Assembly: GCA_052426225.1 (NCBI GenBank)
Contig: JBNJNM010000021.1
Location: 1,922,001-1,986,000 of the forward strand
Source: Zancudomyces culisetae HAW-14-8
Lineage: Eukaryota; Fungi; Kickxellomycota
Direction: 5' to 3'
DNA length: 64,000 nt
Every line of letters begins with the position of its first letter. Within the stretch, counting starts at the first letter, position 1. A model generated the notes under the pieces. That model was not told the origin of the DNA, searched no databases, and saw only the letters and a list, made by a program, of their open reading frames with translations. Of this stretch, positions 24,531 through 59,862 are shown in pieces. Made by a program: the position numbers and the translations under genes.

Positions 24531-24625
24531 CATAATTGTATCTGGATGTTCGCATAATAATAATAAGTTTTCATTTCATTCAACTAAACATATTATTATG
24601 CTTCACTTATCCAGATACAATTATG
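24531..24625. repeat. DIRS internal complementary region (ICR)
   Basis: Left part is the reverse complement of 24173-24240; right part is the reverse complement of 28679-28710. Confidence 0.92.
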
Positions 24626-27600
24626 TAGCTTCAGAGTTCAAGATAAATTGAGTTAAATTTTCACGAGTTCTACGTGATAATTGATAATAAGTATCAAATA
24701 TACCTTTACTTGCCCAAAATCCTTGTGCAATAACATCGTCGTATGTCGCACCTAGCTTTGTAGCTCTAGTAGATCCTAATGCTCGAGCTTTTGGTAACTT
24801 TGCGCTTTCTGGCAACTGCAAGAGTGACATCAATGAATTAATGTGTTTACTGATTCGCTGTGCCCCAATGTGTTTGTCGTTATACTTTAAGTTGCGGATA
24901 AGGTAGTGCAATTGTACTCCATCGAGGATCGGATGGTTTGCAACACTCGGAAAAGTTGCAATGCGTTTTTTATATGCTCTGTATGTTACTACAGGACATA
25001 ATTTATAGTCGCTATGTGCGTGGATTATACTGACCTTTTCAATCGGATTTCCACTTCGCTTTTCTTTTGGTCCAACAATAACAAATTTAACATAATCTTT
25101 ATTGATTTCCGTCTTTGAATCATCGATTCGTTCAATGTCAGAAGGTCTCAAAAATCCACAAATTGCTAGCAACCAACAAATTTTAATTGTTAAATTTTGC
25201 TTGCTCATTTTAAAATTTGAACCAAAATTTTTAATATGTTCGATAATCGGATTAATATCGTAGTTAGGGTTGTTAAAAGATCGAACTGAAGTTGAATCGA
25301 GCTGTTTTAAATAATCAATCATCAAAATATCGCTGCTAAATGTTCGCCATTCAGCATTAATATCGATGATAGCAGACTTGTAGTTTTTTATAGTACCAAC
25401 TTTTAAATTGTTACTAATACGATGTTCATCAAAGAAATTGATAACATCAACAACTGAAACGTTATTAATATCAAGTTTTGCAGACTCTAACCACTTAATA
25501 AACTTTACCTTGATGTTGTAATATTGTTTTTGTTTTGCCATATTTCGTTTACCAGTTGTCATTAACATGATAACTGAATCTTTTAAACCCGTTTTTTCAA
25601 GGCGTGCGCGCTTAATTTCCAGGCCGTAAGCGACCATGTTTTGTTTATCTGTGTCACTTGCTTTCCGCTTTTTGGATCCGGAATTATATGTGGAGCTAAT
25701 ATCTTGATCGGTGGAGCTATTAGCATGCTCTTGAGATCTGGATACCATGGTGCTGACCTCCAAAACGGTGTTATCAATGTCGCTGATACTTTGTCCTGTC
25801 TGATCTTCTGTAGTGTTTTCTGTATCAGATTCCATGGTGGACAAAGGTATGGATTCGTCCAAATGCTCCAATGATGATTGAATGCATTCGTTTTTGCTGC
25901 TTCTGGTGTCCATTTCCAACTCACAAATGTTGGTAGTTTGTGGTTGTTGTTGTTGGCAAACATGTCCACATCGTGTGGACCAAACTGTTTCTGTATCTTC
26001 TGAAACATCTTGTCTGATAGTGACCACTCTGTTTGAGCTGTTAAACGTGATGGTGCATCCGCTGGATTCAGTATTGATGGCACATACTGAATCTGAACCC
26101 GAGTGCCATTGCTGATGCAATGTTTCCAAATTGCTTCCGAAATGTCCATCAGATTCACTGATTTGGTTCCCCCATGCTTCTTGATGTAGCTGATTGAAGT
26201 GTTGTTGTCGCAATATACAACAACACTCTTTCCCTGAACCTGTGGCAGCTTCACTGCATACTGGATTGCTAATAATTCCTTCGCATTGATAGGGAGCTTC
26301 ATCTGTTGTCGTGTCCATGTCCCCGTATACTGATTGCTGTCTATCACTATCCCCCAGTGATTGTCGCTCGCATCCGTATATACTTCTATCTCTGGGATCT
26401 CCGGAAGGAAGCATAGACCATTCCATTGCTTCAGATGGTCCCTCCACCACGTCAGATTGTCCAGTGCAGGCTGATTCAGTGTTACTTGTGAACTCCAATC
26501 CGTGGTGCGTTTCAGAGTGTTGTTTTTGAGCTCTAACAACCTCCTGCTCATCAGTCGTCCCGGTCTGAGTGCTATATTCACTGCCTGCGTTTTGCCAATG
26601 AATGATGCCAGATCCTTCAGTGTTGTACACCCTTTGTGTATCAACCTGGATGCCTCTCTCGCTAAATCTTTGAGTTTCTGTTTGGGTATCTTGAAACTCA
26701 TCTGACGGCTGTTGATGTCCATCCCAAGATGCGTAATACATTGTTTGGGATGTATTGATGACTTTTCCTGGTTGATCAGGAATCCCAGTTTCACCAGTTT
26801 CTTGGAAACCATATTTGTGAACTTTAGACACTCTGTTTTTGTTGATCCTAAGATTAACAAATCGTCTAAGTAGCTCGACATTCGTATCCCGCGAGCTCTG
26901 GCCCATTTCAGTACTGGTTTTAGTATTTTTGTGAATACTAGTGGGCTTAAAGATAGACCAAATGGGAGCACCCTGTACTGGTAGGTGCGACCGCCCCATG
27001 TAAACCTGAGATACTTTCTGGACGTTTTGTTGATCAATACGTGTAGAAATGCATCGCTGAGGTCTATGCTGGTCATATAATCCCCTTTGCGGATCATTCT
27101 GGAGATAGTTGTGAGCGACTCCATCTTGAAATGTCGCTGTGGGATGTACTGATTTAACGGTCTTAAATTCAGTACCATCCGCGTGCCTCCGTTCTTCTTT
27201 GGGATTGTAAACGGATTTGAGTAGAACCCTGGCTGCGCGGATGAAGCTTCCTCTATTGCTTTCTTTGACAGGAGGTTTGCTATCTCCTGTTCGACCACTT
27301 TTTCTGGAAGCTTTTTCAAGTTGTAACCTAACGGTTTTTTCTGCTTGACCGTCGGTGGATGCGTTTTGAAGGGGATTCTGAACCCTTCTGAGATCACTTG
27401 GAGTATCCATTTTTGATCTGTGAGGCGCATCCAAGCCTCCTGGAACATCCTCAGTCTCCCTCCTACTTTCGGTGTTTGCTGCTGTTTGCAAACCGAAAAT
27501 TACCGCCAGTAGCAGCGGATTTGTGTTGTCGTTGTTGTTGGATCTGCTGCGGCTCTGCTTGAACATTCTGGTTAACTGATGGCTGAAACGGAATGCTTGG

Positions 27601-28334
27601 GAAGGTCCTGGTTGCGTTGAATCTTGGTCTTCTCTGCTGCACATTTTTTGTTGCACGCTGCAATGTATTTGCTGCTGCTTTAACTTCGAGCATCTGCTGT
27701 ATGTCCACGAGAGGCTTCTTTGATGATGAAGCCATTTCTGGAGGATCTGATGGTACTCCTGAGGCTTTGTATGACAGTTTGATTCTTTGTTGCGTGATAT
27801 TGGATGCAACATCCGCAAGTAAAACTCTGATTGAGTTGATAAAAACTGCAAGTTTTTCGGCACTGACTGCACCTCCGTCACGGATTGCTTCGTGCATAAA
27901 GTAATCCAAAGGTCTTGTAACGGCTGATAAACGGTACTGGATGTCATATAACATCGCATCAGTACGTTTATTGTCACCTGATAACTTGATGTTTTCCTCT
28001 GGTGGTTCATAATCCATGCCAGAGTTTCTTGGGATGGCTGCGTAAAACTTCTTGCGTTCGACATCTGCCAGTGGTGTCCAAAAGAAATCCTGTTCAACTG
28101 TTGGTAGCGCCTTTTGCAGTTTTGGATACATGACCAGGTCAGATGGTGTTGGTCTGGGAACCACGAAGTTTTCAACTGAATCATCGTCGACTGCATCAAC
28201 GATTGATGGAGCAGTGATGTTTGCTGAATCACTGATTTCTGATACTGACATGTGATCATTTGGTGCGGTTTGTTTTTCAAGAGCTGATAATCTCTCCAAA
28301 ATCTGTTGCAAAACTTCAACTGTAACGTTTGCAT
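24621..28334 (-). CDS. DIRS tyrosine recombinase ORF (YR in the last ~330 aa; upstream part overlaps gag and RT in another frame)
   Basis: TIKNYKSAI (SAM-like), GFLRPSDI (catalytic R), GPKEKR, LCPV, KARALGST, GFW, FDTYY (catalytic Y). True start uncertain. Confidence 0.9.
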   Translation of the reverse strand: MQTLQLKFCNRFWRDYQLLKNKPHQMITCQYQKSVIQQTSLLHQSLMQSTMIQLKTSWFPDQHHLTWSCIQNCKRRYQQLNRISFGHHWQMSNARSFTQPSQETLAWIMNHQRKTSSYQVTINVLMRCYMTSSTVYQPLQDLWITLCTKQSVTEVQSVPKNLQFLSTQSEFYLRMLHPISRNKESNCHTKPQEYHQILQKWLHHQRSLSWTYSRCSKLKQQQIHCSVQQKMCSREDQDSTQPGPSQAFRFSHQLTRMFKQSRSRSNNNDNTNPLLLAVIFGLQTAANTESRRETEDVPGGLDAPHRSKMDTPSDLRRVQNPLQNASTDGQAEKTVRLQLEKASRKSGRTGDSKPPVKESNRGSFIRAARVLLKSVYNPKEERRHADGTEFKTVKSVHPTATFQDGVAHNYLQNDPQRGLYDQHRPQRCISTRIDQQNVQKVSQVYMGRSHLPVQGAPIWSIFKPTSIHKNTKTSTEMGQSSRDTNVELLRRFVNLRINKNRVSKVHKYGFQETGETGIPDQPGKVINTSQTMYYASWDGHQQPSDEFQDTQTETQRFSERGIQVDTQRVYNTEGSGIIHWQNAGSEYSTQTGTTDEQEVVRAQKQHSETHHGLEFTSNTESACTGQSDVVEGPSEAMEWSMLPSGDPRDRSIYGCERQSLGDSDRQQSVYGDMDTTTDEAPYQCEGIISNPVCSEAATGSGKECCCILRQQHFNQLHQEAWGNQISESDGHFGSNLETLHQQWHSGSDSVCAINTESSGCTITFNSSNRVVTIRQDVSEDTETVWSTRCGHVCQQQQPQTTNICELEMDTRSSKNECIQSSLEHLDESIPLSTMESDTENTTEDQTGQSISDIDNTVLEVSTMVSRSQEHANSSTDQDISSTYNSGSKKRKASDTDKQNMVAYGLEIKRARLEKTGLKDSVIMLMTTGKRNMAKQKQYYNIKVKFIKWLESAKLDINNVSVVDVINFFDEHRISNNLKVGTIKNYKSAIIDINAEWRTFSSDILMIDYLKQLDSTSVRSFNNPNYDINPIIEHIKNFGSNFKMSKQNLTIKICWLLAICGFLRPSDIERIDDSKTEINKDYVKFVIVGPKEKRSGNPIEKVSIIHAHSDYKLCPVVTYRAYKKRIATFPSVANHPILDGVQLHYLIRNLKYNDKHIGAQRISKHINSLMSLLQLPESAKLPKARALGSTRATKLGATYDDVIAQGFWASKGIFDTYYQLSRRTRENLTQFILNSEAT
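25583..27448 (-). CDS. DIRS reverse transcriptase / RNase H / adenine-methyltransferase-like ORF
   Basis: LPFGLS, SYLDD, YTDAS, INAKEL, YCDN, NPADAPSR; MT-like DVDMFA...YLCPPW. Confidence 0.95.
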   Translation of the reverse strand: MFQEAWMRLTDQKWILQVISEGFRIPFKTHPPTVKQKKPLGYNLKKLPEKVVEQEIANLLSKKAIEEASSAQPGFYSNPFTIPKKNGGTRMVLNLRPLNQYIPQRHFKMESLTTISRMIRKGDYMTSIDLSDAFLHVLINKTSRKYLRFTWGGRTYQYRVLPFGLSLSPLVFTKILKPVLKWARARGIRMSSYLDDLLILGSTKTECLKFTNMVSKKLVKLGFLINQEKSSIHPKQCITHLGMDINSRQMSFKIPKQKLKDLAREASRLIHKGCTTLKDLASFIGKTQAVNIALRPGRLMSRRLLELKNNTLKRTTDWSSQVTLNQPALDNLTWWRDHLKQWNGLCFLPEIPEIEVYTDASDNHWGIVIDSNQYTGTWTRQQMKLPINAKELLAIQYAVKLPQVQGKSVVVYCDNNTSISYIKKHGGTKSVNLMDISEAIWKHCISNGTRVQIQYVPSILNPADAPSRLTAQTEWSLSDKMFQKIQKQFGPHDVDMFANNNNHKLPTFVSWKWTPEAAKTNAFNHHWSIWTNPYLCPPWNLIQKTLQKIRQDKVSATLITPFWRSAPWYPDLKSMLIAPPIKILAPHIIPDPKSGKQVTQINKTWSLTAWKLSAHALKKRV

Positions 28335-28344
28335 TTTGACTCAT
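27463..28344 (-). CDS. DIRS gag-like ORF1
   Basis: First ORF inside the 5' ITR; coiled-coil N-terminus; homologous to 40203-41083. Confidence 0.85.
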   Translation of the reverse strand: MSQNANVTVEVLQQILERLSALEKQTAPNDHMSVSEISDSANITAPSIVDAVDDDSVENFVVPRPTPSDLVMYPKLQKALPTVEQDFFWTPLADVERKKFYAAIPRNSGMDYEPPEENIKLSGDNKRTDAMLYDIQYRLSAVTRPLDYFMHEAIRDGGAVSAEKLAVFINSIRVLLADVASNITQQRIKLSYKASGVPSDPPEMASSSKKPLVDIQQMLEVKAAANTLQRATKNVQQRRPRFNATRTFPSIPFQPSVNQNVQAEPQQIQQQRQHKSAATGGNFRFANSSKHRK

Positions 28345-30011
28345 TATTGAAAATTTAACTAATGACTTTTATAAATACTATGTATTTTTTATAAGCTGGT
28401 TGAGTACCTAGCGAAAGAAAAGATGGTAAAGATTCATCAGGAAACAGGGGACATCAGTTTATATATGGTTTAAATTTATTTTATTTAGTTAGTTTTACTT
28501 ATTTTATAAAAATTATACAGTGATGTCTGTCATTACACACATCATTACGTATAAAGTTTCTAAATTTAAACACTCTTTTTATCGATTTAATTTTTTACCA
28601 AATTTTAAGGTAATGGATTAATCGATAAAAATAGTATCTAGGAAAGAATTTTCGATTTATAATAAAGATTGGTACACACATAATTGTATCTGGATAAGTG
28701 AAGCATAATAAGTAAAAAATATATTATATGATGTCTAGCGGTTGGTCTTGCCACTAAATAACAGTATATTTCTATCAAATACTACAACCAATAAAGATTA
28801 AAAAGATAATGGACATATTCAAGATCAAAAGTATTGGGCTTTGCTCGCTTTACTCGCTTCTCATGAAAGCAAATCAGTGAAAGTACAATAAGGTGACAAC
28901 AACGATCTAATAGTGGTGGAAAAATTCAAAAGACTCTGGATTGTTTATTGGAAGCTGTTCAAGCCTTTTATGAATGTTGGAGCACATTTTATGCTTAACT
29001 TGGATCCAGGCCTTCAAATTCTCATGGCTTCACAGTTAGATACTTTATGGTATCTTGTTCACTGTTAAAATTTTGCAGCTAAATAATCAAAAAAATTATA
29101 GCCACAGAATGGTATAGCAATCAGTTAGTTTTGCAAAATAATAGTATAATTAAAAATTTTATATAATAATTTAATAAATGTCAAGAAGATGGTAGCTATT
29201 GTGAGTGTATCATTTTATTGGGTGCTTTGAAACTTCAAATCCTATTTAAAAAACTAATGAAATTTTTTCTAAATAAAATCTAGTACGCATAGCCATTGCA
29301 GTCCCCTTATCATCTCTTTGTATAGACTTAAACAAGTACTACGTATATAGTACTCGTAGTGTCGTTGTGTAAGCTATATAAAACAATTAAGTAAGTATAG
29401 TAAAGAAATAACGCTAAATAATAATAATCTTTGTTTTGTTTTCTCATTTTGTATTTATTTAAATTTTGTGAATCTAAACTCGAGATGAGATTTTATAGTG
29501 TTGTGTAAAGAGTCTTCTCAAGTTTACGTATTGATGTGTTAACCTAATCTAACAAGACATCCCTTACACAGCCTTCATAATGTTTGCTTTAGGATGAACC
29601 ATTTATTAAGCATATCAATATTTTATCGTACCTTAGTATTATTAGTTAGCTAGCGAAGTTTCACCCAATATATAATCAAAATGCGTTTTGAAGAAACGGA
29701 AAATTAGGTTAAACTAATTATTTAATGATTGATTTCATCGTAAGCCAAGTTATTGTACACTTTGAAACTATTTGTGTTTATTCGTACTAACGCAAAAATG
29801 GAGGTTTGATAAAATCTATTTATTGACAAAAAGATAGAGCTATTATTAGGGCAATAATGTTATGCATCACATTAACATAACTATTTAATATATATAAAAA
29901 TAAAATAAAATATTGATAACCAAAATAATAATAATGATTCATCATATAATATGTATATAATGCAAATGATAATAATACATTATTATTTAAAACTATTAAT
30001 TGTTTTAGTAT

Positions 30012-30230: not shown

Positions 30231-32209
30231 ATTATGCTTCACTTAACCAGATACAATTATGTGAGTACCAATCTTTTATTTAAATCGTAAATTCTTTAGT
30301 AGAATCTATTTTTATCGATTAATCCATTACCTTAAAATTTGGTAAAAAATTAAATCTATAACAAGTGTGTTTAAATTTAGAAACTTTATACGTAATGATG
30401 TGTGTAATGACAGACAGCACTGTATAATTTTTATAAAATAAGTAAAACTAACTAAATAAAATAAATTTAAAACATATATAAACTGATGTCCCCTGTTACC
30501 TGATGAATCTTTACCATCGTTGAGCTAGGTATGGGTGGGAATTGGGTGGGACATAATTGTATCTGGATGTTCGCATAATAATAATAAGTTTTTATTTCAT
30601 TCAACTAAACATAATATTATGCTTCACTTATCCAGATACAATTATGTAGCTTCAGAGTTCAAGATAAATTGAGTTAAATTTTCACGAGTTCTACGTGATA
30701 ATTGATAATAAGTATCAAATATACCTTTACTTGCCCAAAATCCTTGTGCAATAACATCGTCGTATGTCGCACCTAGCTTTGTAGCTCTAGTAGATCCTAA
30801 TGCTCGAGCTTTTGGTAACTTTGCGCTTTTTGGCAACTGCAAGAGTGACATCAATGGATTTAAGTGTTTACTGATTCGTTGTGCCCCAATGTGTTTGTGG
30901 TTATATTTTAATTTGCGGATAAGGTAGTGCAATTGTACTCCATCGAGGATCGGATGGTTTGCAACACTCGGAAAAGTTACAATGCGTTTTTTATATGCTC
31001 TGTATGTTACTACAGGACATAATTTATAGTCGCTATGTGCGTGGATTATACTGACCTTTTCAATCGGATTTCCACTTCGCTTTTCTTTTGGTCCAACAAT
31101 AACAAATTTAACATAATCTTTATTGATTTCCGTCTTTGAATCATCGATTCGTTCAATGTCAGAAGGTCTCAAAAATCCACAAATTGCTAGCAACCAACAA
31201 AATTTAATTGTTAAATTTTGCTTGCTCATTTTAAAATTTGAACCAAGTTTTTTAATATGTTCGATAATCGGATTAATATCGTAGTTAGGGTTGTTAAAAG
31301 AACGAACTGAAGTTGAATCGAGCTGTTTTAAATAATCAATCATCAAAATATCGCTGCTAAATGTTCGCCATTCAGCATTAATATCGATGATAGCTGACTT
31401 GTAGTTTTTTATAGTACCAACTTTTAAATTGTTACTAATACGATGTTCATCAAGGAAATTGATAACATCAACAACTGAAACGTTATTAACATCAAGTTTT
31501 GCAGACTCTAACCACTTAATAAACTTTACCTTGATGTTGTAATATTGTTTTTGTTTTGCCATATTTCGTTTACCAGTTGTCATTAACGTGATAACTGAAT
31601 CTTTTAAACCCGTTTTTTCAAGGCGTGCGCGCTTAATTTCGAAGCCGTAAGCGACCATGTTTTGTTTATCTGTGTCACTTGCTTTCCGCTTTTTGGATCC
31701 GGAATTATATGTGGAGCTAATATCTTGATCGGTGGAGCTATTAGCATGCTCTTGAGGTCTGGATACCATGGTGCTGACCTCCAAAACGGTGTTATCAATG
31801 TCGCTGATACTTTGTCCTGTCTGATCTTCTGTAGTGTTTTCTGTATCAGATTCCATGGTGGACAAAGGTATGGATTCGTCCAAATGCTCCAATCAAGATT
31901 GAATGCATTCGTTTTCGCTGCTTCTGGTGTCCATTTCCAACTCACAAATGTTGGTAGTTTGTGGTTGTTGTTGTTGGCAAACATGTCCACATCGTGTGGA
32001 CCAAACTGTTTCTGTATCTTCTGAAACATCTTGTCTGATAGTGACCACTCTGTTTGAGCTGTTAAACGTGATGGTGCATCCGCTGGATTCAGTATTGATG
32101 GCACATACTGAATCTGAACCCGAGTGCCATTGCTGATGCAATGTTTCCAAATTGCTTCTGAAATGTCCATCAGATTCACTGATTTGGTTCTCCCATGCTT
32201 CTTGATGTA
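30231..32209 (-). mobile_element. DIRS copy 2, 5'-truncated (end of RH/MT, YR 30642-31892, ICR, ITR)
   Basis: Near-identical to the 3' part of copies 1 and 3; cut at TA 32208-32209 by a Tc1. Confidence 0.95.
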
Positions 32210-34389
32210 CAGTGAGTTTCAAAAATGTCTCAAAATATTGAATTTATTTTGCAAAGTGTAATATCTCGCTCAATAATATCCAGAATTAGATAATTATATA
32301 TAATATAATGCACAATTGGTATAATATAATTTTTATAATAAGTATTATTATTGGTTAAAAATTCATTATAAAATTATAAACTGAAATAATTTTAAAAATG
32401 AGAAATTTTGGGAATTTTTCAAAAAAAAACTTTATAATTCTGTCCACCTTCCTTTGGACTTGATAACTGCCTCAACTCTTTAGGACATACTATCTATAAG
32501 ACCAAGTATTGTTTCCACTGAAATTAAATTCCATTCCGTTTCTATTCGCTCCCATAATTCATCATCCCGGACGGAGGTTTACTGTATCTATTTAGGCGTC
32601 TTTTGATTATTGCCCATATAGTTTCGAACATGTTAAAGTCTGGAGATTGTGGCGGCCAGTCCAATGTATTATATTCCTGGTTTTCAAGCCAGCATGTAAC
32701 TAACTTTGAGGTATGATTAGGATCATTGTCATGTTGCAATATTATTGACTTGGGATCCAACTTGTAGTACTTTATTGTATTGCTAAGCTCGGCTTTTAAA
32801 ATGTTTAAATAACCATCCTTGATTAACATCCCTGCTATTCGGCACATGTAGCCAGTTTCAAATGCTGTGATGCATCCCCAAATCATTAATGATCCTCCAC
32901 CGTGTTTTATGGTCTGGTTAATATTGTGCGGCTGTAGACTCACACCATCACGAACCCAAGTCCATTCATTTCCATCAGATCCAAATCGGTTGATTTTAGT
33001 TTTGTCGGACCAAATTACTCGTCTCCAATCATCAGTAGTCCAGTGGCGATGAGATTTTGCGAATCTCAACCTTTTTGCAATATTTTTAAGGCTCAGTTTC
33101 GGTTTGGATGCCTTTTTTTTTGCAACGGCTTTTAGATCATTAAAACCCCTATATATTGTAGACTTACTAGCACTAACAATATTATCCATTTCTAACTTCT
33201 TTTGTATCGAAGTAGCAGATCGATACATTCCAGATAATATCATCCTAGTACATATATGCTTGCTTTGGGGTGAAAGCTTCGCTGGACGACCGCGTTTATT
33301 AGCCGGTAAATAGATATTCATTGCTGCTTTAATTCTGTAAATTGTTGCTTTACTAACTCCATTTTCTATAATAGTTTGCACAATGCTTCTTCCTTCAAGC
33401 AACGCGTTTTTTATATCCTATTTGTAAAGACTTGAATATTTTAAGATTAAATTATTTATTACTATTAATTATTTAGAAAAATATGGTATTCAATAGTGAA
33501 TAAGATATTTTTCTCTGAAGTTCTCTTTTGATGGATTTCGAAAGGGTTTTTATACTTTTACTCCAGAGATTTTTCCATATAAAATTTTCTTAAGTAAAGT
33601 TGCTATCAAACTATAAATTTGACTATTAAATTTATGAGTTACTGATGTGATTAACTACCGTGAGTTTAGTGTGTCAATGATTGCGTCATTCATGTTATTC
33701 TGACGATTCTTTGAATTATTAGTTTCGGAATTCTTTCTAGGTTTCTTATTTCCTAAAATGGACTGTGAATATTATTATAACAAATTTCATCGCGAAATAT
33801 ATTTTTTTACTTGACTTGGTTAGATTAATTTAATAATTGTACTTAGTTACATTAAATTAATTTGTACTTAGTTACATTTAATTAATTTGTACTTTGTTAC
33901 ATTTAATTAATTTGTACTTAGTTACATTATAGTAATTTGTATATGGTTACAATTTCATTTTGTAACCTACTTGATTTGGTCATGGAGAATTTTAATAAAC
34001 ATGAATTTATTTAATTTATTTTAAAACAATTCCTAACACAATTAACGTTGTTCAGATATCAATTTTTAAAAATTATAATTTTGATTATTATTATGTTGAT
34101 ATAATTATAATATTTAAAAGTTTTAAATTTTTAAAATTTGAATTCATAAAGTTATGATAGTTTAAATTTTTTTTTGAAAAATTATCAAAATTGTCTCATA
34201 TTTAAAATTTATTCAATTTATAATTCTATAATGAATTTTTAAACAATATAAAAACAGATTAAATTAAAATTAATATAACATTTGTGCATTATATAATATA
34301 AAATTGATATAATTTCTTGATATTATTAAGCGAGATATTACACTTTGAAAATTATTTTCAATATTTTGAGACATTTTTGAAACTCACTG
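32210..34389 (-). mobile_element. Tc1/mariner family A element, DD34E transposase pseudogene (32542-33402), long imperfect TIRs
   Basis: TA|CAGTGAGTTTCAAAAATGTCTCAAAATATTGAA at both ends; ~220-bp TIR similarity; GRP, WSD, KHGGG, QHD-x34-E, WPPQSPD. Confidence 0.93.
33423..34038. repeat. Solo LTR (~615 bp) inside the Tc1 transposase 5' coding region
   Basis: TG...CA ends; degenerate 5-bp TSD CTATT/CAATT; internal ~25-bp tandem repeat TTAATTAATTTGTACTTAGTTACAT; second copy at 55842-56454. Confidence 0.8.
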
Positions 34390-34594
34390 TATGTAATGAT
34401 GTGTGTAATGACAGTGTCAGATAACAAATTTATTTAAGTTGGGAAACTTAATGTTCTCAAGTTAGGATTCAAAGGTAATTAAATATGATTAAAAATTAAT
34501 ATTGAAACTTATGGGTAAATAATGCGATTCTGACATTATCATCCCTTCAAAGAATATTTTAATTATATAAAAATAATATCTTGGACAAAAATGT

Positions 34595-34861
34595 GAGCTT
34601 ATAGTCGAGTGGCTAAGGCGTCGAACTTGTATTCTGCAGGACTCTGGTTCGATCCTATGCTGTAAGACCGTATTTGGGAAGAAATTAGCTGTAGAGTGGA
34701 TGTGATGTTTCACGGGGCCAATGTGCGCGATAACGTCCTTCGGGACTAGTACCGGACCGTTTCACCTCTCCGATAACTCCTTCGGGATCTCGATCAGTTA
34801 ATTCGAATCACGTGATCGTGTGGCCCAAGACGTTAGCGCCCTCCTAAGTTCATTCTTTTTT
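34595..34861 (+). ncRNA. Putative Pol III transcript with tRNA-like head and structured body, antisense in the chromovirus 3' UTR
   Basis: A-box TAGTCGAGTGG (34602-34612); B-box GGTTCGATCC (34646-34655); two C(UUCG)G hairpins; T6 terminator (34856-34861). Confidence 0.65.
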
Positions 34862-34977
34862 ATTTTTTATTTTATAATTTTTTATGCTTTTTAGTTGTTT
34901 TTAGGTTGTTTTTATAGTTTTTTTTTGATATGTATTTAGGTTTAATATTGGTTAAATCATAAAATATAATGTTGCTC

Positions 34978-37900
34978 TTATGGTTTGTTGTGATATGTCT
35001 TATAGTATTTTTTCAATAGTTGAGGCGCGTTTATGTTTTCAATCGGCTCCCAGCTTCTTTCACTTATGTCAAAGCCTTTCCAATCAACCAAGAAATATTT
35101 TTTACCCCGTACAAGCTTAGAATCCAAAATAGCCTTAACTTCGTATTCTTTATTTTCATTTATAATTAGAGGTGGAGGAAGACTGTTTATTAATCTGCGG
35201 TTACTGCTGGGTTCGATATACGGTTCCAATAACGAGACATGAAAAGTGTTATGGATTTTCATTGATGGCGGGAGGTCTAAACGGACAGAAACAGGATTGA
35301 TAATTTTAGAGATGGTGAAAGGGCCTAGAAGTCTATGGTCAAGCTTTTTAGAAGGCCTTTGAGTTTTGATATTTTGGCTGGATAGCCAAACCTTGTCACC
35401 TAGTTTATACTTTGGATGTTCAGATCGGTTTACATCAGCATACTTTTTATATTCCTGAGATTTTTTGTTAAGTATGGAAGTGAGGGCTGATTGAAGTTCT
35501 TTAAGTTGTTTTATCCTATCAGAAGCGCTGGGGACGTGAACGTTTTTAGTGATTTGAGGATCAAATCTTGGATGGTAACCATATAGAGCAAAGAAAGGAG
35601 AAGTATTAGTGCTGGAGTGGAGAGTGTTGTTATAAGCAAATTCGGCAATTGGGAGCAGTTCAAACCAATTATCTTGCTGATAGTTGATGAAACAGCGTAG
35701 ATACTGTTCCAATGTTTGATTCACCCGCTCCGTTTGACCGTCTGTCTCTGGATGAAAGGCTGTAGACATCCTAGTATCAACTTTGAGCAGTTTGAATAGT
35801 GAACTCCAAAATTTGGACGAGAATTGGGTTCCACGGTCTGAGATTATGACGTCTGGAAGTCCATGAAGCTTGAATACGTGGGTAAAGAAGGCGGAGGCAG
35901 TTTCTTCTGAGGATGGCAGCTTCTTAAGCGGGATGAAATGGCTCATTTTAGTGAACCTGTCTACAACTACCATAATAGTAGTGTGCTTGTTGGATGGAGG
36001 AAGATCAGTTATGAAATCCATGGTAATAGATTTCCATGGGCCTGAGGGAGCGGGTAGCGGAAGTAGTTTACCGTAAACTTTGTGTCTTCTGTCCTTTGAT
36101 CTATTGCATGTATCACAGGTTTGAACAAATTCTTTAATAAATTTGCGCATTCCTGGAAACCAAAAGTCTCGTTCCACGAGCTCCAATGTCTTCTTAGCAC
36201 CAAAATGGCCGGCTGGGCCACTGTCATGTCTAGAACTTACAACTTGCGGCTTCATTTTGTCGGGGACGACAACACGGTTTCCAAGCATTACAATCCCATC
36301 TTCAACTTCTACTGGCTCGTTAGACTTATGGCTGCTCTGGTATCTTGCGGCATCCAATAATCCTTCTAGATGGGCTTTGCTGGATTTGGCGATTTCTTGA
36401 GCAAAATCACTGTCCACTATGCTGATAATGTCTATGAAGTGGTCTTCGCCTATGATGTTGTTGTTGGCGACCTTATCGGGTGTGTGATTGGGCAAACGAG
36501 AAAGAGCGTCAGGTTTGCCTCCTTGAGATCCAGGCCTGTAGGTTATGATGAAGCTGAATCTACTGAGATCAAGAGACCACCTTGCGTGTCTTCTGTTGAG
36601 TGACTTCAGATTTTTAAAGGTCTCCAGATTCTTATGGTCAGTAAGAATCTTGAACGGGATGGAGGAGCCTTCCAGATGATGTCGCCATTCTTTGAGAGCC
36701 TTGATGATTGCCAAAAGTTCCTTGTCATAGATATTATAGTTGGATTCGGCAGTGTTGAGTTTGTAAGAGTAGTAGGCACAAGGACGGAGATCACCGTTTT
36801 CATCTTCTTGGGACAGAGCAGCCCCAATGGCGTAGTCTGAGGCGTCAGTTTCCAGAATAAACTGTTTTCCTGGGTCAGGGTATCTGAGAACGGGGGAAGT
36901 GGTGAGATCCTGGATAAGAGTATTAAAGGCTTCACCTGCCTCCTTACTCCAAACGAACGGTGTATCCTTTTTCAGAAGTCTTGTGATTGGCAGGGCTTTC
37001 AGCGAGAAGTATGGGATAAACTTTCGGTAGTAATTGGCAAAACCGAGAAACTTCTGGACCTCCTTGACATTGGTGGGTGGTAGCCTTTCCTTTACACACT
37101 TGACTTTAGCAGGATCGGTGGCTATTCCATCTGAAGACACAACATGACCTAGAAATTCAATTTCCCTGATATGGAAGTGACATTTTTCGGCGTTACAGTA
37201 CAGACCATTTTCAAGCAGCTTTTTCAGAACAGATTTCACATGATTGATGTGAGTGTCAGTGTCATTGGAAAATATCAAGATGTCGTCAAGGTATGCAATT
37301 GCATAGAGATCCAATACATCTCGTAACACATCATTGATAAAGTGCTGAAAGGTGGCGGGAGCATTTGTCAAGCCAAATGGCATGACCTGGTACTCAAAGT
37401 GGCCATATCTGCACCTAAATGCAGTTTTCCACTCGTCACCTTCCTTGATCCGCACTAAGTTGTAGGTACCTTTGAGATCCAATTTTGTAAAGACCTTGGC
37501 TGTACGCAGCCGATCGAACGCCTCATCAATCCTAGGTAATGGGTACCTATTCTTGATGGTAGCTTCGTTTAATCGGCGGTAGTCAACACAAAGGCGCAAG
37601 TCTCCAGACTTCTTCTTTACAAACATGATTGGTGCACCGGCAGGGGAAACAGAGCGTCTGATGAAGCCATTGGTGAGGTTTTCGCGGATGTAACCTCTTA
37701 GAGACTCTAACTCTACTTCAGATAGCGGGTATATTGGCCCCCAGTATGGGGTGTAACCCTCTTTGGTGTTGACAGGACAGTCATAACGGCGGTGAGGAGG
37801 AAGTGAAACGGCAGACTTGGGATTGAACACTTCCTTGAATTCAGAGTATATTACTGGAAGTTGCGGAAATTCTTCCAAGTACTCTAGCGGGGACTCAGAA

Positions 37901-38930
37901 ACGGCAAAAGTTACAGGATCTGGATCCAAGGAATATTCTGGCTCGGGGGTGGTGACTGGGGTATTTTTATGAAATGGCCGGGATCTGACGACTGGTTCTC
38001 TTGGCTCAATTTTCTTCAGGATTGCTTTGGGAAGTTCAGGTCTGAGTGGTACTTTTGGCACAGGGGTTACTGGACGACGGGGCTCAGGAATTTGCTTGAC
38101 AACATGGTTATCTACTGGATTCTCAATAGCTGCGGGTTTGGGCAAACTTTGGGTTTCAGGTTCTGGAGTGACTGATTGGACTGGTGCAGGAACAGGTACA
38201 GGAAGCTTCTCTTCAATTCTGGCGTATGGATTTGACGGAGCTGGGCTGGGGAGATCAGGAGACGGAGGCGGTGAAAATCTTTGATTTTCAGTGTTTGAAT
38301 CGTCCAACTTGACCGATTCGAGCAACTTGGCACTGTGTGGAAGCAGGGTAGTTGATAATCTATTCAACACCCTTTGGAGGATGGTTGGGTTTGTGGACGT
38401 ATTCTGACTGGTATTTTGTTCTACTGGATCTGGATCTGGTTCATCAGGTGACTTGAACACGGCCTGGATCGAGTGGGTATCAACACAATTTGTTCTGCAA
38501 AAGTCAGAGTCAAAGTGGATCTGGAGGTCTGGCCAAGTTATACTAGGAATGTGTTTGCGTAACCAGGGTAATCCAAAAATAATGTCAGCGTGATTGGTTG
38601 GAATCGGGATAAGGTCTAGGTGTTCAGAGTGGTTAGGACCGGACTTGATATGGGCATTATCAACCTTGACATTTATGCCCCCTGGGTATATCTGGTGACC
38701 ATCAACACTTTCTAGGACGATGGTTTTTTCTCTTCTTTGGTTGGGAGGTTTAGTTTTTCTAATAAATCTTGACGAATAAAGTTGGCTGAAGCACCGGAGT
38801 CCACTAATGCAACAATTTCGTGAATATTATTTAAAACAACTTTAATATGAAATTTATTACTAGAAATATTAGAATTATTTGCTACGCTCAGATGTAACTC
38901 CCGGACTACATCTGAGCACTGTCTTTTGGC
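34978..38930 (-). CDS. Gypsy pol: protease, Pro-rich spacer, RT, RNase H, integrase, chromodomain (one frameshift near 38725)
   Basis: ALVDSGASANFI (~38800, outside the ORF track), YLDD, ETDASD, HHCC, MDFITDLP, SDRG, GQTERVN, GPF, EYEVKAILDS...FLVDWKGF...SWEP. Confidence 0.93.
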
Positions 38931-39859
38931 ACCCCAGGTATAGGGGGTCTTGGCCTGCGGAGCGGACAGTTACGGAGAATGTGGTTCGGCTGACCACAGT
39001 ATAGACAAAGATTATTGGCTAATCTTCTCTGGCGTTCGGCTGTATCTAGCGGTGCTCTTGGACGGGAGGTGACGGCATCAACGTCCATTGGTTCAGGAGC
39101 CTGGTGATCTGGGACAGGCATGGCTGGACGGGGGAAGACCGGTGGAGCCGGAGTACTCCAGTTGCGGAATGGGACGCTTCTCTTGGGCAGGTAGGCACTG
39201 CGGGCATTGATCCTGTTCTCAAGCTCAATCACCTGATCAATGAGCTGATCCAAGGTGTTTGGTAGCGGTTCAGTGGCAAGGCGCTGGACAAGGCTAGTAT
39301 CCAATCCGATGTAAAACAGGTGGATTTTGGCTGGCTCGTTGAATCCACTGAGAGAGGCGAGGTTTCTGAACTCGGTTGCAAATTCCAGGACGGAACGCTG
39401 GGACTGGCGGCAACTATGAAGCTGGGTGATAGCTCGGGCTTGGTGGCCAGGATCTGAGAATCTCTTTTGAAATTCATTCTCAAACCCTTTGAAATCTGAG
39501 AGCAACGGTGATTGGGTATCGATAAGGTTATCGAACCACAGGGCAGCATGACCGGCAAGGTGAGAACTGATGAACCATATCTTGTTATGGTCACTCTGGA
39601 ACACGTCTGGTCTGGCCCAGAACTGGCGCTTGATCTCGGCGGTGAAGGCTCGGAACCTTCCTGATTCTCCTGAGTATTTCTGGATTTCTGGTATTCTGAT
39701 ACCATCAATCCTTGGCTGCGGATTTGGTGCAGGCAAATTCTGCAACTGACTGGGGACTTGGGCGGGTGTCTGGGCTTGAGCCTGGGCTTGAGCTTGACTT
39801 TCTTGCAAAGCTTGTTGCATAGCTAATTTTGCGATCTCATCTAATTGGTGGACCATCAT
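38906..39859 (-). CDS. Gypsy gag
   Basis: Retrotransposon gag core (RQSQRSVLEFATEFR), PEPMDVD, zinc knuckle CLYCGQPNHILRNC; exact ATG uncertain. Confidence 0.92.
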   Translation of the reverse strand: MMVHQLDEIAKLAMQQALQESQAQAQAQAQTPAQVPSQLQNLPAPNPQPRIDGIRIPEIQKYSGESGRFRAFTAEIKRQFWARPDVFQSDHNKIWFISSHLAGHAALWFDNLIDTQSPLLSDFKGFENEFQKRFSDPGHQARAITQLHSCRQSQRSVLEFATEFRNLASLSGFNEPAKIHLFYIGLDTSLVQRLATEPLPNTLDQLIDQVIELENRINARSAYLPKRSVPFRNWSTPAPPVFPRPAMPVPDHQAPEPMDVDAVTSRPRAPLDTAERQRRLANNLCLYCGQPNHILRNCPLRRPRPPIPGVPKDSAQM

Positions 39860-40015
39860 TAACTCTTCAACCAATAATTAGAAGTTTCCCTAAATGTCAG
39901 GAAACTAATTTATTTAAGTTGGGAAACTTAATGTTCCCAAGATAGGATTCAAAGGTAATTAAATATGTTTAAAAATAAATATAGAAACTTATGGGTAAAT
40001 AATGCGATTCTGACA

Positions 40016-43000
40016 GACAGACATCACTGTATAATTTTTATAAAATAGGTAAAACTAACTAAATAAAATAAATTTATACCATATATAAACTGATTTCCCC
40101 TGTTTCCTGATGAATCTTTACCATCTTTTCTTTCGCTAGGTACTCAACCAGCTTATAAAAAATACATAGTATTTATAAAAGTCATTAGTTAAATTTTCAA
40201 TAATGAGTCAAAATGCAAACGTTACATTTTAAGTTTTGCAACAGATTTTGGTGAGATTATCAGCTCTTGAAAAACAAAACGCACCAACTGATCACATGTC
40301 AGTATCAGAAATCAGTGATTCAGCAAACATCACTGTTCCATCAATCGTTGATGCAGTCGACGATGATTCAGTTGAAAACTTCGTGGTTGCCAGACCATCA
40401 CCATCAGACCTGGTCATGTATCCAAAACTGCAAAAGGCGCTACCAACAGTTGAACAGGATTTCTTTTGGACACCACTGGCAGATGTCGAACGCAAGAAGT
40501 TTTACGCAGCCAACCAAGAAACTCTGGCATGGATTATGAACCACCAGAGGAAAACATCAAGTTTTCAGGTGACAATAAACGTACTGATGCGATGTTATAT
40601 GACATCCAGTACCGTTTATCAGCCGTTACAAGACCTTTGGATTACTTTATGCACGAAGCAATCCGTGACGGAGGTGCAGTCAGTGCCGAAAAACTTGCAG
40701 TTTTTATCAACTCAATCAGAGTTTTACTTGCGGATGTTGCATCCAATATCACGCAACAAAGAATCAAACTGTCATACAAAGCCTCAGGAGTACCATCAGA
40801 TCCTCCAGAAATGGTTTCAACATCAAGGAAGCCTCTCGTGGACATACAGCAGATGCTCGAAGTTAAAGCAGCTGCAAATACATTGCAGCGTGCAACAAAA
40901 AATGTGCAGCAGAGAAGACCAAGATTCAACGCAACCAGGACCTTCCCAAGCATTCCGTTTCAGCCATCAGTTAACCAGAATGTTCAAGCAGAGCCGCAGC
41001 AGATCCAACAACAACGACAACACAAATCCGCTGCTACTGGCGGTAATTTTCGGTTTGCAAACAGCAGCAAACACCGAAAGTAGGAGGGAGACTGAGGATG
41101 TTCCAGGAGGCTTGGATGCGCCTCACAGATCACAAATGGATACTCCAAGTGATCTCAGAAGGGTTCAGAATCCCCTTCAAAACGCATCCACCGACGGTCA
41201 AGCAGAAAAAACCGTTAGGTTACAACTTGAAAAAGCTTCCAGAAAAAGTGGTCGAACAGGAGATAGCAAACCTCCTGTCAAAGAAAGCAATAGAGGAAGC
41301 TTCATCCGCGCAGCCAGGGTTCTACTCAAATCCGTTTACAATCCCAAAGAAGAACGGAGGCACGCGGATGGTACTGAATTTAAGACCGTTAAATCAGTAC
41401 ATCCCACAGCGACATTTCAAGATGGAGTCGCTCACAACTATCTCCAGAATGATCCGCAAAGGGGATTATATGACCAGCATAGACCTCAGCAATGCATTTC
41501 TACACGTATTGATCAACAAAACGTCCAGAAAGTATCTCAGGTTTACATGGGGCGGTCGCACCTACCAGTACAAGGTGCTCCCATTTGGTCTATCTTTAAG
41601 CCCACTAGTATTCACAAAAATACTAAAACCAGTACTGAAATGGGCCAGAGCTCGCGGGATACGAATGTCGAGCTACTTAGACGATTTGTTAATCTTAGGA
41701 TCAACAAAAACAGAGTGTCTAAAGTTCACAAATATGGTTTCCAAGAAACTGGTGAAACTGGGATTCCTGATCAACCAGGAAAAGTCATCAATACATCCCA
41801 AACAATGTATTACGCATCTTGGGATGGACATCAACAGCCGTCAGATGAGTTTCAAGATACCCAAACAGAAACTCAAAGATTTAGCGAGAGAGGCATCCAG
41901 GTTGATACACAAAGGGTGTACAACACTGAAGGATCTGGCATCATTCATTGGCAAAACGCAGGCAGTGAATATAGCACTCAGACCAGGACGACTGATGAGC
42001 AGGAGGTTGTTAGAGCTCAAAAACAACACTCTGAAACGCACCACGGATTGGAGTTCACAAGTAACACTGAATCAGCACGCACTGGACAATCTGACGTGGT
42101 GGAGGGACCATCAGAAGCAATGGAATGGTCTATGCTTCCTTCCGGAGATCCCAGAGATAGAAGTATATAAGGATGCGAGCGACAATCACTGGGGGATAGT
42201 GATAGACAGCAATCAGTATACGGGGACATGGACACGACAACAGATGAAGCTCCCTATCAATGCGAAGGAATTATTAGCAATCCAGTATGCAGTGAAGCTG
42301 CCGCAGGTTCAGGGAAAGAGTGTTGTTGTATATTGCGACAACAACACTTCAATCAGCTACATCAAGAAGCATGGGAGAACCAAATCAGTGAATCTGATGG
42401 ACATTTCAGAAGCAATTTGGAAACATTGCATCAGCAATGGCACTCGGGTTCAGATTCAGTATGTGCCATCAATACTGAATCCAGCGGATGCACCATCACG
42501 TTTAACAGCTCAAACAGAGTGGTCACTATCAGACAAGATGTTTCAGAAGATACAGAAACAGTTTGGTCCACACGATGTGGACATGTTTGCCAACAACAAC
42601 AACCACAAACTACCAACATTTGTGAGTTGGAAATGGACACCAGAAGCAGCGAAAACGAATGCATTCAATCTTGATTGGAGCATTTGGACGAATCCATACC
42701 TTTGTCCACCATGGAATCTGATACAGAAAACACTACAGAAGATCAGACAGGACAAAGTATCAGCGACATTGATAACACCGTTTTGGAGGTCAGCACCATG
42801 GTATCCAGACCTCAAGAGCATGCTAATAGCTCCACCGATCAAGATATTAGCTCCACATATAATTCCGGATCCAAAAAGCGGAAAGCAAGTGACACAGATA
42901 AACAAAACATGGTCGCTTACGGCTTCGAAATTAAGCGCGCACGCCTTGAAAAAACGGGTTTAAAAGATTCAGTTATCACGTTAATGACAACTGGTAAACG

Positions 43001-44075
43001 AAATATGGCAAAACAAAAACAATATTACAACATCAAGGTAAAGTTTATTAAGTGGTTAGAGTCTGCAAAACTTGATGTTAATAACGTTTCAGTTGTTGAT
43101 GTTATCAATTTCCTTGATGAACATCGTATTAGTAACAATTTAAAAGTTGGTACTATAAAAAACTACAAGTCAGCAATCATCGATATTAATGCAGATTGGC
43201 GAACATTTAGCAGCGATATTTTGATGATTGATTATTTAAAACAGCTCGATTCAACTTCAGTTCGATCTTTTAACAACCCTAACTACGATATTAATCCGAT
43301 TATCGAACATATTAAAAATTTTGGTTCAAATTTTAAAATGAGCAAGCAAAATTTAACAATTAAATTTTGTTGGTTGCTAGCAATTTGTGGATTTTTGAGA
43401 CCTTCTGACATTGAACGAATCGATGATTCAAAGACGGAAATCAATAAAGATTATGTTAAATTTGTTATTGTTGGACCAAAAGAAAAGCGAAGTGGAAATC
43501 CGATTGAAAAGGTCAGTATAATCCACGCACATAGCGACTATAAATTATGTCCTGTAGTAACATACAGAGCATATAAAAAACGCATTGTAACTTTTCCGAG
43601 TGTTGCAAACCATCCGATCCTCGATGGAGTACAATTGCACTACCTTATCCGCAAATTAAAATATAACCACAAACACATTGGGGCACAACGAATCAGTAAA
43701 CACTTAAATCCATTGATGTCACTCTTGCAGTTGCCAAAAAGCGCAAAGTTACCAAAAGCTCGAGCATTAGGATCTACTAGAGCTACAAAGCTAGGTGCGA
43801 CATACGACGATGTTATTGCACAAGGATTTTGGGCAAGTAAAGGTATATTTGATACTTATTATCAATTATCACGTAGAACTCGTGAAAATTTAACTCAATT
43901 TATCTTGAACTCTGAAGCTACATAATTGTATCTGGATAAGTGAAGCATAATATTATGTTTAGTTGAATGAAATGAAAACTTATTATTATTATGCGAACAT
44001 CCAGATACAATTATGTCCCACCCAATTCCCACCCATACCTAGCTCAACGATGGTAAAGATTCATCAGGTAACAGG
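40016..44075 (+). mobile_element. DIRS copy 3: gag disrupted, RT/RH/MT 41098-42963 and YR 42675-43925 open, 3' ITR decayed
   Basis: gag ATG at 40203 meets TAA at 40230 and a frameshift near 40512; ICR at ~43921-44015; the 5' ITR continues at 34390-34414 across the gypsy insertion. Confidence 0.95.
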
Positions 44076-47000
44076 TGATAATATATTGATATGGATAAAA
44101 TTCCATTTATTACTGTTGTACATAACATTTTTGATTTTACGTATTGTCCAGCAAATCACAATACCTCGTTAAAGTTTAGATAATCTACAAAAATACATGG
44201 ATATATTATTTTTATTATCACAATGATATATTTCAGTTTCACTTTATATTTGATTATTTATCATAAATTTTGCTTTGTGCATATGATATAACCAGATTTT
44301 AGTATATCACTTAATTATATTATTGATGTTGTTACAATAAATATACTATATATTATCAATTCATAGAAAAATTATAAGTTAATTAATAATATATAATTAA
44401 TGTGTCTCAGAATAATTTAAACATTTAAATATCTTAAAATATAATAATATTTTACAATTAAATAAATATGTTTAATATTATTATGATGCATGAAGCATTG
44501 ACATGTATATTTTAAATCCAATTATTATAATTAGCTGTTATAGTAATACAATATATTAGCTTTATATAATATTTAAAACTGTAATTATTTCCCGATAATC
44601 GGTAATTTATTTATATATTGTTAAATAATATGTTATATTTATTTATTCTATTATAGGTAAATATTTATTTATTCAAGTATAGGTATATATTTATTTATAA
44701 CTGATATTATATATGTATATATATAGTAATAACAATATATATTGTTACATGATAAATATATTGATATCTTCACTTTTAGGGATATATATGAACATAGCAT
44801 CAAATATGAATGTATTCGTAGATCTAAATATTCATTGGTAATATCACATATTAATTTAATTTAAGAATAATTTTTGAATGATAATTATAAAGTGCAATAT
44901 TAATAGTTATAATAAAGCTTAACATATAAATGTATGATAATATTATGCACGTAAATAATACCATTTAATAAACAAATTTTTTCATGTAAACAAAATGATG
45001 TTTATTATATTGAATCAAAATAAAATATTATTTAAAGTTAATTATAGTAATGTAAGTTAGTTACAAAATTTATATAATATATATAATTAATATACATATT
45101 GTTGTAATAATAATAATAAATATTTTGTTTTATATTAAAATATATATTATACCTTGATTTTATATTATATCAATGCAATAACAATGATCAAATTGTGTTA
45201 TTATAGTTAGAATAGAATTACCCGTCATAATATTTTAGAGTTTAAAACTTAGATATTATATAATATATTTTATTAATTCATATAATTATATTATATATTA
45301 TTTTTTTAAGACATTAATATAGTATGTATGTATTCTATCATACCATTATAATAAAATCTACAAATATCAATATTGAAAATAATCATAATTTTATGTAATA
45401 ATTAATATTATAAATGCCATACAAAATTAAATATTTTAAATATTTGTAAATGAAATATATTACTTTACATTATAATAAATAATGTTTTACTATAATAGAT
45501 CATATACTAGTTTTCATAATTATGAATTTTTACATCGATAATAATTTATAAAAATTATAAAACTTAGTTACAATTATATTTAGATATACATTATCAAAAT
45601 TATAATGTGATTAAATTGATTTATATGTTTATATAGCAAATAAAATATTATATATACATTTGGCCAACGATTTAATTGTTATAAAGTTTTGAATATTATA
45701 TATAGAGTCGTATATATATATTAATTATGATGTATAGTTCGATTATTTGATATAATTAGATTTTTACATTATATTATATTTATTATTTGAGCCACATTTG
45801 ATGGAGAATTATATTAATAATATATAATATAATATTAGATAGAAAACTAATATTAAAAATAGGTATTTATGGAAATATTATAATAGACTTTAATATATAA
45901 TATATTATGATATGTATGTTGAATAACTAAATAATTAAAAATTTGTATAATTGGATGATATTGATAATTTGCTAGCAAATAACTATAATGTGATCTACTT
46001 TATATACATTTTTCACTACACATGTTTATTATTAAATTCTATATAATGTTTTTTTAAATTAATTCAATACATTGTCATATATATAAACGTATATCAAACA
46101 ATTTATCCATTATGATTGATGCAAAATATTATTATAATTCAATAATATTTAATTAGTATGCGTTATGCATATAGTAAATGCCATGCTTTTTTTTAAATTT
46201 AGAATTCTATACTCAATAATATTTATATTAAGTTGAAATATAAATATTGCACGTCAAACGACATTATGAATTTATTATAACATATAATGACTTTTATATT
46301 AATGCCAAAACATACATCATGTATGATATAATAAAACATTATTATAATTTAGTTTAACACATAAAATACATGATATAATAGTATGTAAATATATAGTTTA
46401 TACATCTAAAAACAATCAACTAATATATATTTTAAAATGAACGAATGATATATATATATATATATATAATTATAATATTTGTAAAAAATTTATAACATAA
46501 TTTGTATATTTATATATTTATGAATAACTAAATAAAACATAATATTATGATAATATAAATATAATTATATCGTATATATTTATATCATGTATTTGTTATG
46601 TCACGATGTATAAGTTTAAAACATTATGCTTAAGACATTATATAAAGGTATTGTATTGAACATGCTTGTGTATATTATATATTTTTGTAAAATTATCAAG
46701 TAACCGAATGATTTATGAACATGATATATTAATTATCATAATATTATGTCTCATATATTTAATTATTATATATACCAACCATTTGTCTAAATGATTATAT
46801 TTAAAACTAAACATAAAATATACATTTCAATAATACTATTTAATAAAATTAGATCCATGTTTGTATCAATTATTCATATACACGGGTTCAATTGTTGAAC
46901 GATGATTTTAAGGTTATATACATATTTTATATATAATAACAAGTATAAATATAGTTAATCAAAATTCAATATTATTGTAATTGAAAATATAATTTTGGAT

Positions 47001-53664: not shown

Positions 53665-53723
<59 letters not shown>

Positions 53724-59222: not shown

Positions 59223-59862
59223 TACATATTTATTTCTTATTTTTAACAAATATATATTTATAAATAGTATTCTATTACAATCGAATCTTAAGATATTCGA
59301 CATTTGTTTCAAATCGATTCTAACGTTAATTCCACACCATACGGTGATCCGCGAATCAGTACGGCTTTAAATAAAACTTTAGAACAGGTGGGTGGCTCCG
59401 GTGCTTGCTTGCGCTTGCGCATATTGGTAGCCTATATCCTCACATAATTACTCTAAAGTTTATTTATTTTATTTATAGACTGAAAGAATATTTTAGTGTC
59501 ATATTAACTTCCTAATGGAAGAGTATATTTTAATCTAAATTTTTCATCGTAGTTTTCTTTGAATCTAAAAAACTTAAATAAGTATATGAAAAAATCCATA
59601 ATCTATCATGTTTAGAAATCTTGAAACATTCATTGAAGTTTCAAAATGGATGATTCAGATATTTTATGTTCCAGCGATGTAATTCCTTTTGAATAATTAT
59701 TTCTAGATTGTAACTTGGTAATTGCCGTTACCATGATTGTTGTTATTAAGTAATTGTAACGTTGCATAACACGTTTTAATTATGGCAGTAACAATTTTAT
59801 TTTATTAATTTAATTAATTCTAGGTAAAAAAATAAAAAATAGCTATTTTGTAATTCACAACA

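Follow-up and report, generated by a model that had tools for sequence, protein, structure and literature searches.

An antisense, tRNA-derived Pol III-type unit within an autonomous chromovirus of Zancudomyces culisetae

Introduction

Small-RNA genes transcribed by Pol III are already known from retroviruses and from DNA viruses, and tRNA-derived promoters are known from the LTRs of non-autonomous TRIM elements. In the TMERs of MHV68, structured RNA and a T run come after a tRNA-like head, and RNase Z requires a folded tRNA. SINE2 elements likewise carry a tRNA head, joined to an unrelated body, within a length of 100-700 bp. Several systems combine such signals differently. Adenovirus VA RNA is transcribed from a Pol III unit with box A and box B that is thought to be tRNA-derived, has paired ends and terminates in a U run; box A lies in its terminal stem and box B in its apical stem, and the terminal stem is a Dicer substrate, the RNA acting as a Dicer decoy (PMC7589676). 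The Pol III miRNA genes of BLV and foamy viruses are compact units with A- and B-like boxes and T terminators, situated inside LTR retroelements (PMC4267658, PMC3993851). Neurospora milR-4 places a structured RNA and a T run behind a tRNA-like head (PMC3547838), and Helenus, Ajax and Cassandra (TRIMp3) are LTR elements whose tRNA-derived sequence has conserved its boxes but no longer forms a functional cloverleaf, with fungal examples of which some are Thr-like (PMC10886601).

Here we analyse a GC-rich island lying inside a chromovirus, within a 64,000-nt stretch of the Z. culisetae genome (hereafter the window). Both the expression and the fold of VA RNA, the product of a DNA virus, have been demonstrated (PMC7589676), whereas the island lies antisense in a retrotransposon and would specify a longer RNA whose predicted fold is no stabler than those of shuffled sequences; no sequence similarity between the two is claimed. 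The BLV and foamy-virus genes belong to vertebrate retroviruses and yield pre-miRNAs shaped as short hairpins or dumbbells, with the BLV B boxes located past the terminator and the foamy cassettes within the LTR (PMC4267658, PMC3993851), whereas the island combines an intragenic B box with an entire tRNA-derived head and a predicted branched body. TRIMp3 elements are non-autonomous and carry their tRNA-derived sequence in both LTRs, where it is used as promoter (PMC10886601); the island, in contrast, is single, internal and antisense, and its element encodes gag and pol and has LTRs devoid of tRNA-like sequence, features that place the element itself outside Helenus (TRIMp3). Unlike SINE2 copies, the island shows no poly(A) tail, target-site duplication or second copy within the window. 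The milR-4 pathway depends on a folded tRNA for RNase Z (PMC3547838), while the island has a cloverleaf disfavoured by folding and a trailer that is no simple hairpin in the prediction.

If the unit works, its closest functional analogues would be adenovirus VA RNA or the Pol III genes that BLV and foamy viruses carry. Among the papers listed by literature searches whose cover excludes most subscription journals and Repbase, none describes a Pol III unit lying antisense in the interior of an autonomous Ty3/gypsy element. Were the unit both expressed and maintained, it would mean that retrotransposons possess a non-coding means of handling RNAi; were it instead a passenger, it would be a first pointer towards a Harpellales family of SINEs or Helenus elements.

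A complete chromovirus harbours the island

A complete chromodomain Ty3/gypsy element occupies the minus strand at 34414-40015. Pfam matches on that strand identify gag (38906-39860, in a frame matched over 38906-39877) and a pol frame (34978-38826) with RT, RNase H, integrase, a Tf2-type SH3 domain and a chromodomain. The order gag, RT, RNase H, integrase with a C-terminal chromodomain, accompanied by TG..CA LTRs, a PPT and a 5-bp target-site duplication, is that of a chromovirus. The 3' LTR (34414-34535, minus strand) is 122 bp long and adjoins a purine-rich tract at 34536-34552 that is likely the PPT; it differs from the 5' LTR (39894-40015, minus strand) at 8 of 121 aligned positions. The duplicated target site, GACAG, lies at 34409-34413 and at 40016-40020. 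The target sequence recurs three more times within the window, each time with GACAG only once, which sets the ends of the element at 34414 and 40015. The chromovirus inserted in the end of another repeat, a DIRS-like copy. Among the matches listed, the closest homologues are 56% identical for pol and 34% identical for gag. Domains, LTRs and target-site duplication thus bear out the host assigned by an earlier reading of these letters (the sequence-only reading), in which an antisense unit had been placed between pol and the PPT of a chromovirus.

Several features of the element deserve record in their own right. The protease begins in a different frame from pol, and in this copy it is interrupted by a one-base frameshift near 38730. 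An 11-bp perfect inverted repeat (38886-38917, minus strand) overlaps the gag stop, with the protease motif starting in the -1 frame; the inverted repeat is likely a stimulator of programmed frameshifting. In the PBS region that follows the 5' LTR (39880-39930), the sequence can pair with two stretches at the end of that LTR. Self-priming elements show such complementarity to their LTR (PMC4600332), and from its sequence the element is likely primed by the Tf1-type self-priming mechanism.

Pol III signals on the strand opposite gag-pol

The island lies between pol and the PPT and is read on the plus strand, antisense to gag-pol. Its composition is distinctive: 34595-34855 has 50% GC with a CpG observed/expected ratio of 1.24, as against 16% and 19% GC and no CpG in the non-coding flanks inside the element, and a CpG ratio of 0.61 in gag and pol; the GC- and CpG-rich island in AT-rich surroundings noticed initially is therefore real. 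An A box (34602-34612) and a B box (34646-34655) match consensus at tRNA spacing. When both strands of the window were scanned with the consensus, this pair at 34602/34646 proved unique, and none of 20,000 shuffles of the island yielded an A/B-box pair, so that the antisense promoter boxes first proposed by eye stand firmly. A boxes sit 8-20 nt downstream of the transcription start (PMC4267658). About 30 nt 5' of the tRNA head is a TATA-like element (34564-34571, plus strand), weak and in an AT-rich context.

The interior of the island contains no T4. The earliest run of four or more T is the T6 at 34856, as previously noted, and it is followed by seven further T4+ runs (34856-34926, plus strand), all likely Pol III terminators. 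With an A and a B box at tRNA spacing and a T4+ terminator, the locus has the sequence features of a type 2 Pol III gene. The agreement of promoter, UUCG loops and terminator on one strand, to which the sequence-only reading had appealed, exists but carries less weight than was claimed, because both CUUCGG motifs derive from one duplication and a flank of 16% GC is expected to hold T runs.

The head of the island (34595-34669, plus strand) is a degenerate tRNA in which the D loop and T loop are retained and TGT stands at the anticodon position, with the anticodon stem and local acceptor broken. A search of Rfam, as the sequence-only reading had proposed, gave only tRNA, at 13.9 bits (E 4.2) against a gathering threshold of 29; the likeness to tRNA is thus visible below threshold, and no other family was returned for the island. 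ARAGORN called no tRNA gene at the island under default settings; with relaxed settings it reported tRNA-Thr(TGT) at the head as one of 43 calls, mostly spurious. A functional tRNA gene can be rejected, the cloverleaf falling under both the ARAGORN and Rfam thresholds. Hammerhead, twister, pistol, SRP, RNase P/MRP and U3 RNAs were likewise rejected by inspection against their motifs and by Rfam.

Predicted fold of the whole RNA

Folding of the plus-strand RNA predicts that its ends pair with each other. The 5' strand of this terminal stem (34595-34622) forms 19 pairs, three of them G-U, with 34829-34851 in the 3' strand (34829-34852). Positions 1-7 of the tRNA pair seven for seven with 34845-34851, four bases 5' of the T6, and further pairing joins 34607-34613 to 34838-34843 and 34617-34622 to 34829-34834; the stem is interrupted by three internal loops, and its longest uninterrupted run is 7 bp. 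No 24-nt segment between 34630 and 34880 is a better match for the 5' 28 nt than the 3' end. In tests picked after the fold had been seen, the energy of the 5'/3' duplex was equalled in 50 of 3000 shuffled bodies, a 7-bp end stem arose in 1.2% of shuffles, and 19 end-to-end pairs in 7/300; the resulting p of about 0.02 is modest and is to be read knowing that the fold guided the choice of tests.

The stability of the whole RNA is not above that of shuffles (z -0.8; 44/200 as good). The ensemble is better defined than those of shuffles, both in diversity (3/120) and in the number of pairs with p>0.9 (7/120), and the fold of the minus strand is worse (z 0.40). For the remainder of the tRNA head, the prediction is pairing with the next 30 nt in a long imperfect hairpin (34628-34700, plus strand; z -1.17, with 33/300 shuffles as good) that would sequester the B box, so that in the predicted layout box A lies inside the terminal stem and box B inside the next stem, an arrangement that, as predicted, corresponds to the one reported for adenovirus VA RNA (PMC7589676). 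The trailer is predicted to be branched, with no long hairpin.

This architecture differs from the one first drawn. The acceptor stem GAGCTTA/TAAGACC receives a pairing probability of 0.0, GAGCTTA pairing instead with 34845-34851; the sequence permits a local 7-pair helix (34598-34604/34660-34666), also with a predicted probability of 0.0; the energy penalty is about 18 kcal/mol when the D and T arms are imposed, and 18-22 kcal/mol for cloverleaf folds. A trailer of ~190 nt released by cleavage, as had been envisaged, is disfavoured by folding. In these models a full-length, end-paired RNA fits better than a local acceptor with two UUCG modules, and the end-paired fold, missed by the sequence-only reading, is offered as a new structural hypothesis, better than the original one.

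The duplicated module is itself secure. One copy, GTTTCAC..CGATAAC followed by GTCC-TTCG-GGAC, spans 34707-34746 (plus strand), and the other, GTTTCAC..CGATAAC followed by TCC-TTCG-GGA, spans 34759-34787 (plus strand); the pattern GTTTCAC..CGATAAC occurs twice where 0.01 occurrences are expected, and the internal duplication is stronger than in 500/500 shuffles. The two C(UUCG)G hairpins attributed to these copies are absent from the predicted fold (probabilities 0.05 and 0.01); since forcing both costs only 2.9 kcal/mol, they may nevertheless form in vivo. The suggested GGGCC/GGCCC helix fared well, with a predicted probability of at least 0.99; the domain that it closes (34715-34826, plus strand) has z -1.2, and 32/300 shuffles are equally good. 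The palindrome singled out earlier is at chance level, a 10-nt palindrome appearing in 22% of shuffles. Read on the minus strand, the heptamer of the module (34707-34713 and 34759-34765) is GTGAAAC, which may resemble the yeast pheromone response element; the two 7-mers may match 18S rRNA.

Related sequences and divergence

We searched contigs from four sequencing runs (X1-X4), of which X1 is an independent run and X2 comes from a separate study and is labelled 'RNA?, probably DNA'. No RNA sample was among the runs listed with a match, which says nothing about expression. The island was found in two of the four, X1 and X2; X3 and X4 gave nothing beyond short AT-rich matches. The X1 contig, 175 nt over 34664-34838, shows 3 differences from the trailer (98% identity, 1.7% divergence), and the X2 contig, 177 nt over 34648-34825, shows 9 differences and one gap (94%). 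X2 contigs cover the island and no long pieces of pol, a gap in cover to which we give no weight. X1 also contains six pol pieces of the chromovirus family. Differences were listed individually for two of the three in the X1 island, four of the nine in the X2 island and 17 of the 26 in X1 pol; those 17 comprise 13 synonymous and 4 non-synonymous changes, a ratio with p 5e-6 against neutrality. Purifying selection has therefore acted on pol in this family over a time in which a near-identical trailer persisted. Divergence of the trailer (1.7%) is below the synonymous divergence (3.3-5.1%; P 0.02-0.17), a weak hint from sequence comparison that the trailer may be constrained. Three of five listed island changes fall at unpaired positions, and two (X2: 34688 and 34729) fall at predicted G-C pairs whose partners are unread. 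No X1 contig joins the island to pol or LTR, since the T-rich tract interrupts assembly into contigs; contig depth, which is not copy number and carries no weight here, is similar for the island (4.1) and the pol pieces (2.9-4.2). The anatomy given in the sequence-only reading, a tRNA-derived Pol III-type unit lying antisense within an autonomous chromovirus, is supported, and a related copy of the trailer is present in X1, as is pol of the family.

Beyond these runs, the strict module pattern had no match in metagenome contigs or prokaryote genomes, the head pattern none in viral contigs, and blastn of the island none in phages. Two viral matches to a loose module pattern were rejected as chance, having neither a tRNA head nor a stem around the UUCG. 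Protein-based scans identified 4 viral loci and, in 2 of 64 collection parts, 79 metagenome loci at 39-53% identity. A usable C-terminal match was available for 62 of 85 loci, some of the 3' sequence lying past the LTR and a few stretches behind a neighbouring element. No B box occurred in these 62 distant chromovirus 3' regions (69,725 nt), hence the island is not clade-wide; at 39-55% identity, the relatives are too remote to gauge conservation within the family. ARAGORN called no gene in 54 loci, a result that is uninformative because the program overlooks the island too.

Accounts of the island

Our leading interpretation, held at somewhat short of even confidence, is that the island is a Pol III RNA gene kept by the chromovirus family, and it is plausible that the element encodes a functional ncRNA here. 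The A and B boxes would recruit TFIIIC, with transcription by Pol III starting at or just before 34595 and stopping at 34856, the product being a full-length RNA of ~270 nt, antisense to the 3' UTR of the element, with its ends paired. In this RNA the tRNA head would pair with the 3' end and with the stretch just behind the head; so refolded, it would go unrecognised as a tRNA by RNase P and RNase Z, and the full-length RNA would accumulate. For such an imperfect dsRNA, the likeliest action would be on host Dicer, as decoy or substrate, in the manner of adenovirus VA RNA, damping RNAi against the element. Taken outright, the Dicer role itself we consider unlikely. More doubtful by a shade is the complete proposition, in which an autonomous fungal LTR retrotransposon would carry its own VA-RNA-like Pol III RNA, made by refolding a tRNA promoter into an end-paired RNA, and would use this non-coding RNA as a counter-defence that suppresses the RNAi of its host. 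As modelled, the terminal stem is a poor classical Dicer substrate, given its three internal loops and longest run of 7 bp. Dicer is recorded in Z. culisetae, two Smittium species and Furculomyces, and in the two entries examined, that of Zancudomyces among them, it lacks PAZ and dsRBD (PMC12663654 supplement).

Retention of a gene is favoured by A and B boxes that are intact although the cloverleaf is broken, and by 50% GC persisting amid non-coding element DNA of 16-19% GC. The first of these observations applies equally to a possible, if less favoured, explanation: that the island is a relic of a tRNA-derived SINE or Helenus-type solo LTR, inserted backwards in an ancestral 3' UTR and copied since without benefit, for boxes on a dead cloverleaf are standard in SINE2 and Helenus (PMC10886601). 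The second could also be met by a foreign origin, which could explain the high GC and CpG content. A minimum free energy ordinary among shuffles and the lack of the island in the 62 distant relatives are likewise in keeping with a relic. A Helenus-type solo LTR stays a candidate because the ends of the island read TG..CA, with a 7/8 inverted match like that of LTR ends (34594-34852). At that boundary, however, there is no target-site duplication, 4 of 5 positions being mismatched, and the only near-match, AAAAA/TAAAA (34592-34959), lies in AT-rich DNA. No direct repeat of at least 7 nt was found in the flanks tested, and the tail of the island is T-rich; SINEs with T tails exist. The earlier argument that the lack of poly(A) and target-site duplication speaks against a SINE is thus upheld as to the repeats in those flanks, but an eroded SINE or Helenus insertion is still a candidate. 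Against a relic stand the occurrence of one copy only in 64 kb rich in other repeats, end complementarity that extends, at 19 pairs (three G-U), past the 8-bp inverted repeat, and, weakly, divergence under the synonymous rate.

Improbable, in our assessment, is a role at the DNA level, in which TFIIIC and TFIIIB, recruited by the boxes next to the PPT and 3' LTR, would provide a heterochromatin-targeting element with a barrier or an open region in chromatin, the RNA being a by-product. The boxes are the best-kept features of the island, TFIIIB would by our inference occupy the 59 bp between head and LTR, and chromodomain integrases target heterochromatin (PMC4600332). Such a role leaves the 190-nt GC-rich trailer, the duplication and the end pairing unexplained, and the location is at the 3' LTR, not the promoter LTR.

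Still less probable is a precursor like that of the TMERs or milR-4, whose head would fold and be cut by RNase Z, the trailer being diced to self-limiting antisense small RNAs. The succession of tRNA head, structured trailer and T run, with milR-4 as fungal precedent (PMC3547838), the full complementarity of the RNA to the 3' UTR of the element and the drawable 7-pair helix would suit it; the null probability of that helix, the cost of the cloverleaf folds and the branched trailer count against it, and in the prediction neither the folded tRNA domain nor the pre-miRNA hairpin of this class is found.

Least probable by our reckoning is a captured host Pol III gene, of an RNA family too diverged for Rfam and carried by the element, for which speak a size and predicted end pairing like those of cellular Pol III RNAs and the 94%-identical copy in the second study (X2), and against which speak the solely sub-threshold tRNA match in Rfam and an antisense orientation that would misfit template switching onto co-packaged RNA.

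Genomic neighbourhood

The window is dense in other mobile elements. DIRS-like elements lie at 24173-28711, 30231-32209 and 40016-44078, their long arms being 99-100% identical, and matches to RT and Dam methylase fall at 41047-42963 within the last of them. Directly left of the chromovirus is a Tc1/mariner-like element (32208-34391; DDE_3, HTH) with inverted ends, related pieces of which lie in 55600-57500. Two other gypsy elements, at 51824-55588 and 59814-64000, have pol sequences 48-55% identical, with 3' regions interrupted or outside the window. Among the nested transposons, 5 kb of 13-20% GC (44000-49000) possibly represents centromeric DNA or decayed repeats. By one protein match, the host is probably a Harpellales gut fungus: an NADPH oxidase frame nearby shares 86% identity with a protein of Zancudomyces culisetae, the sole match at E<=1e-20 among 1538 candidates.
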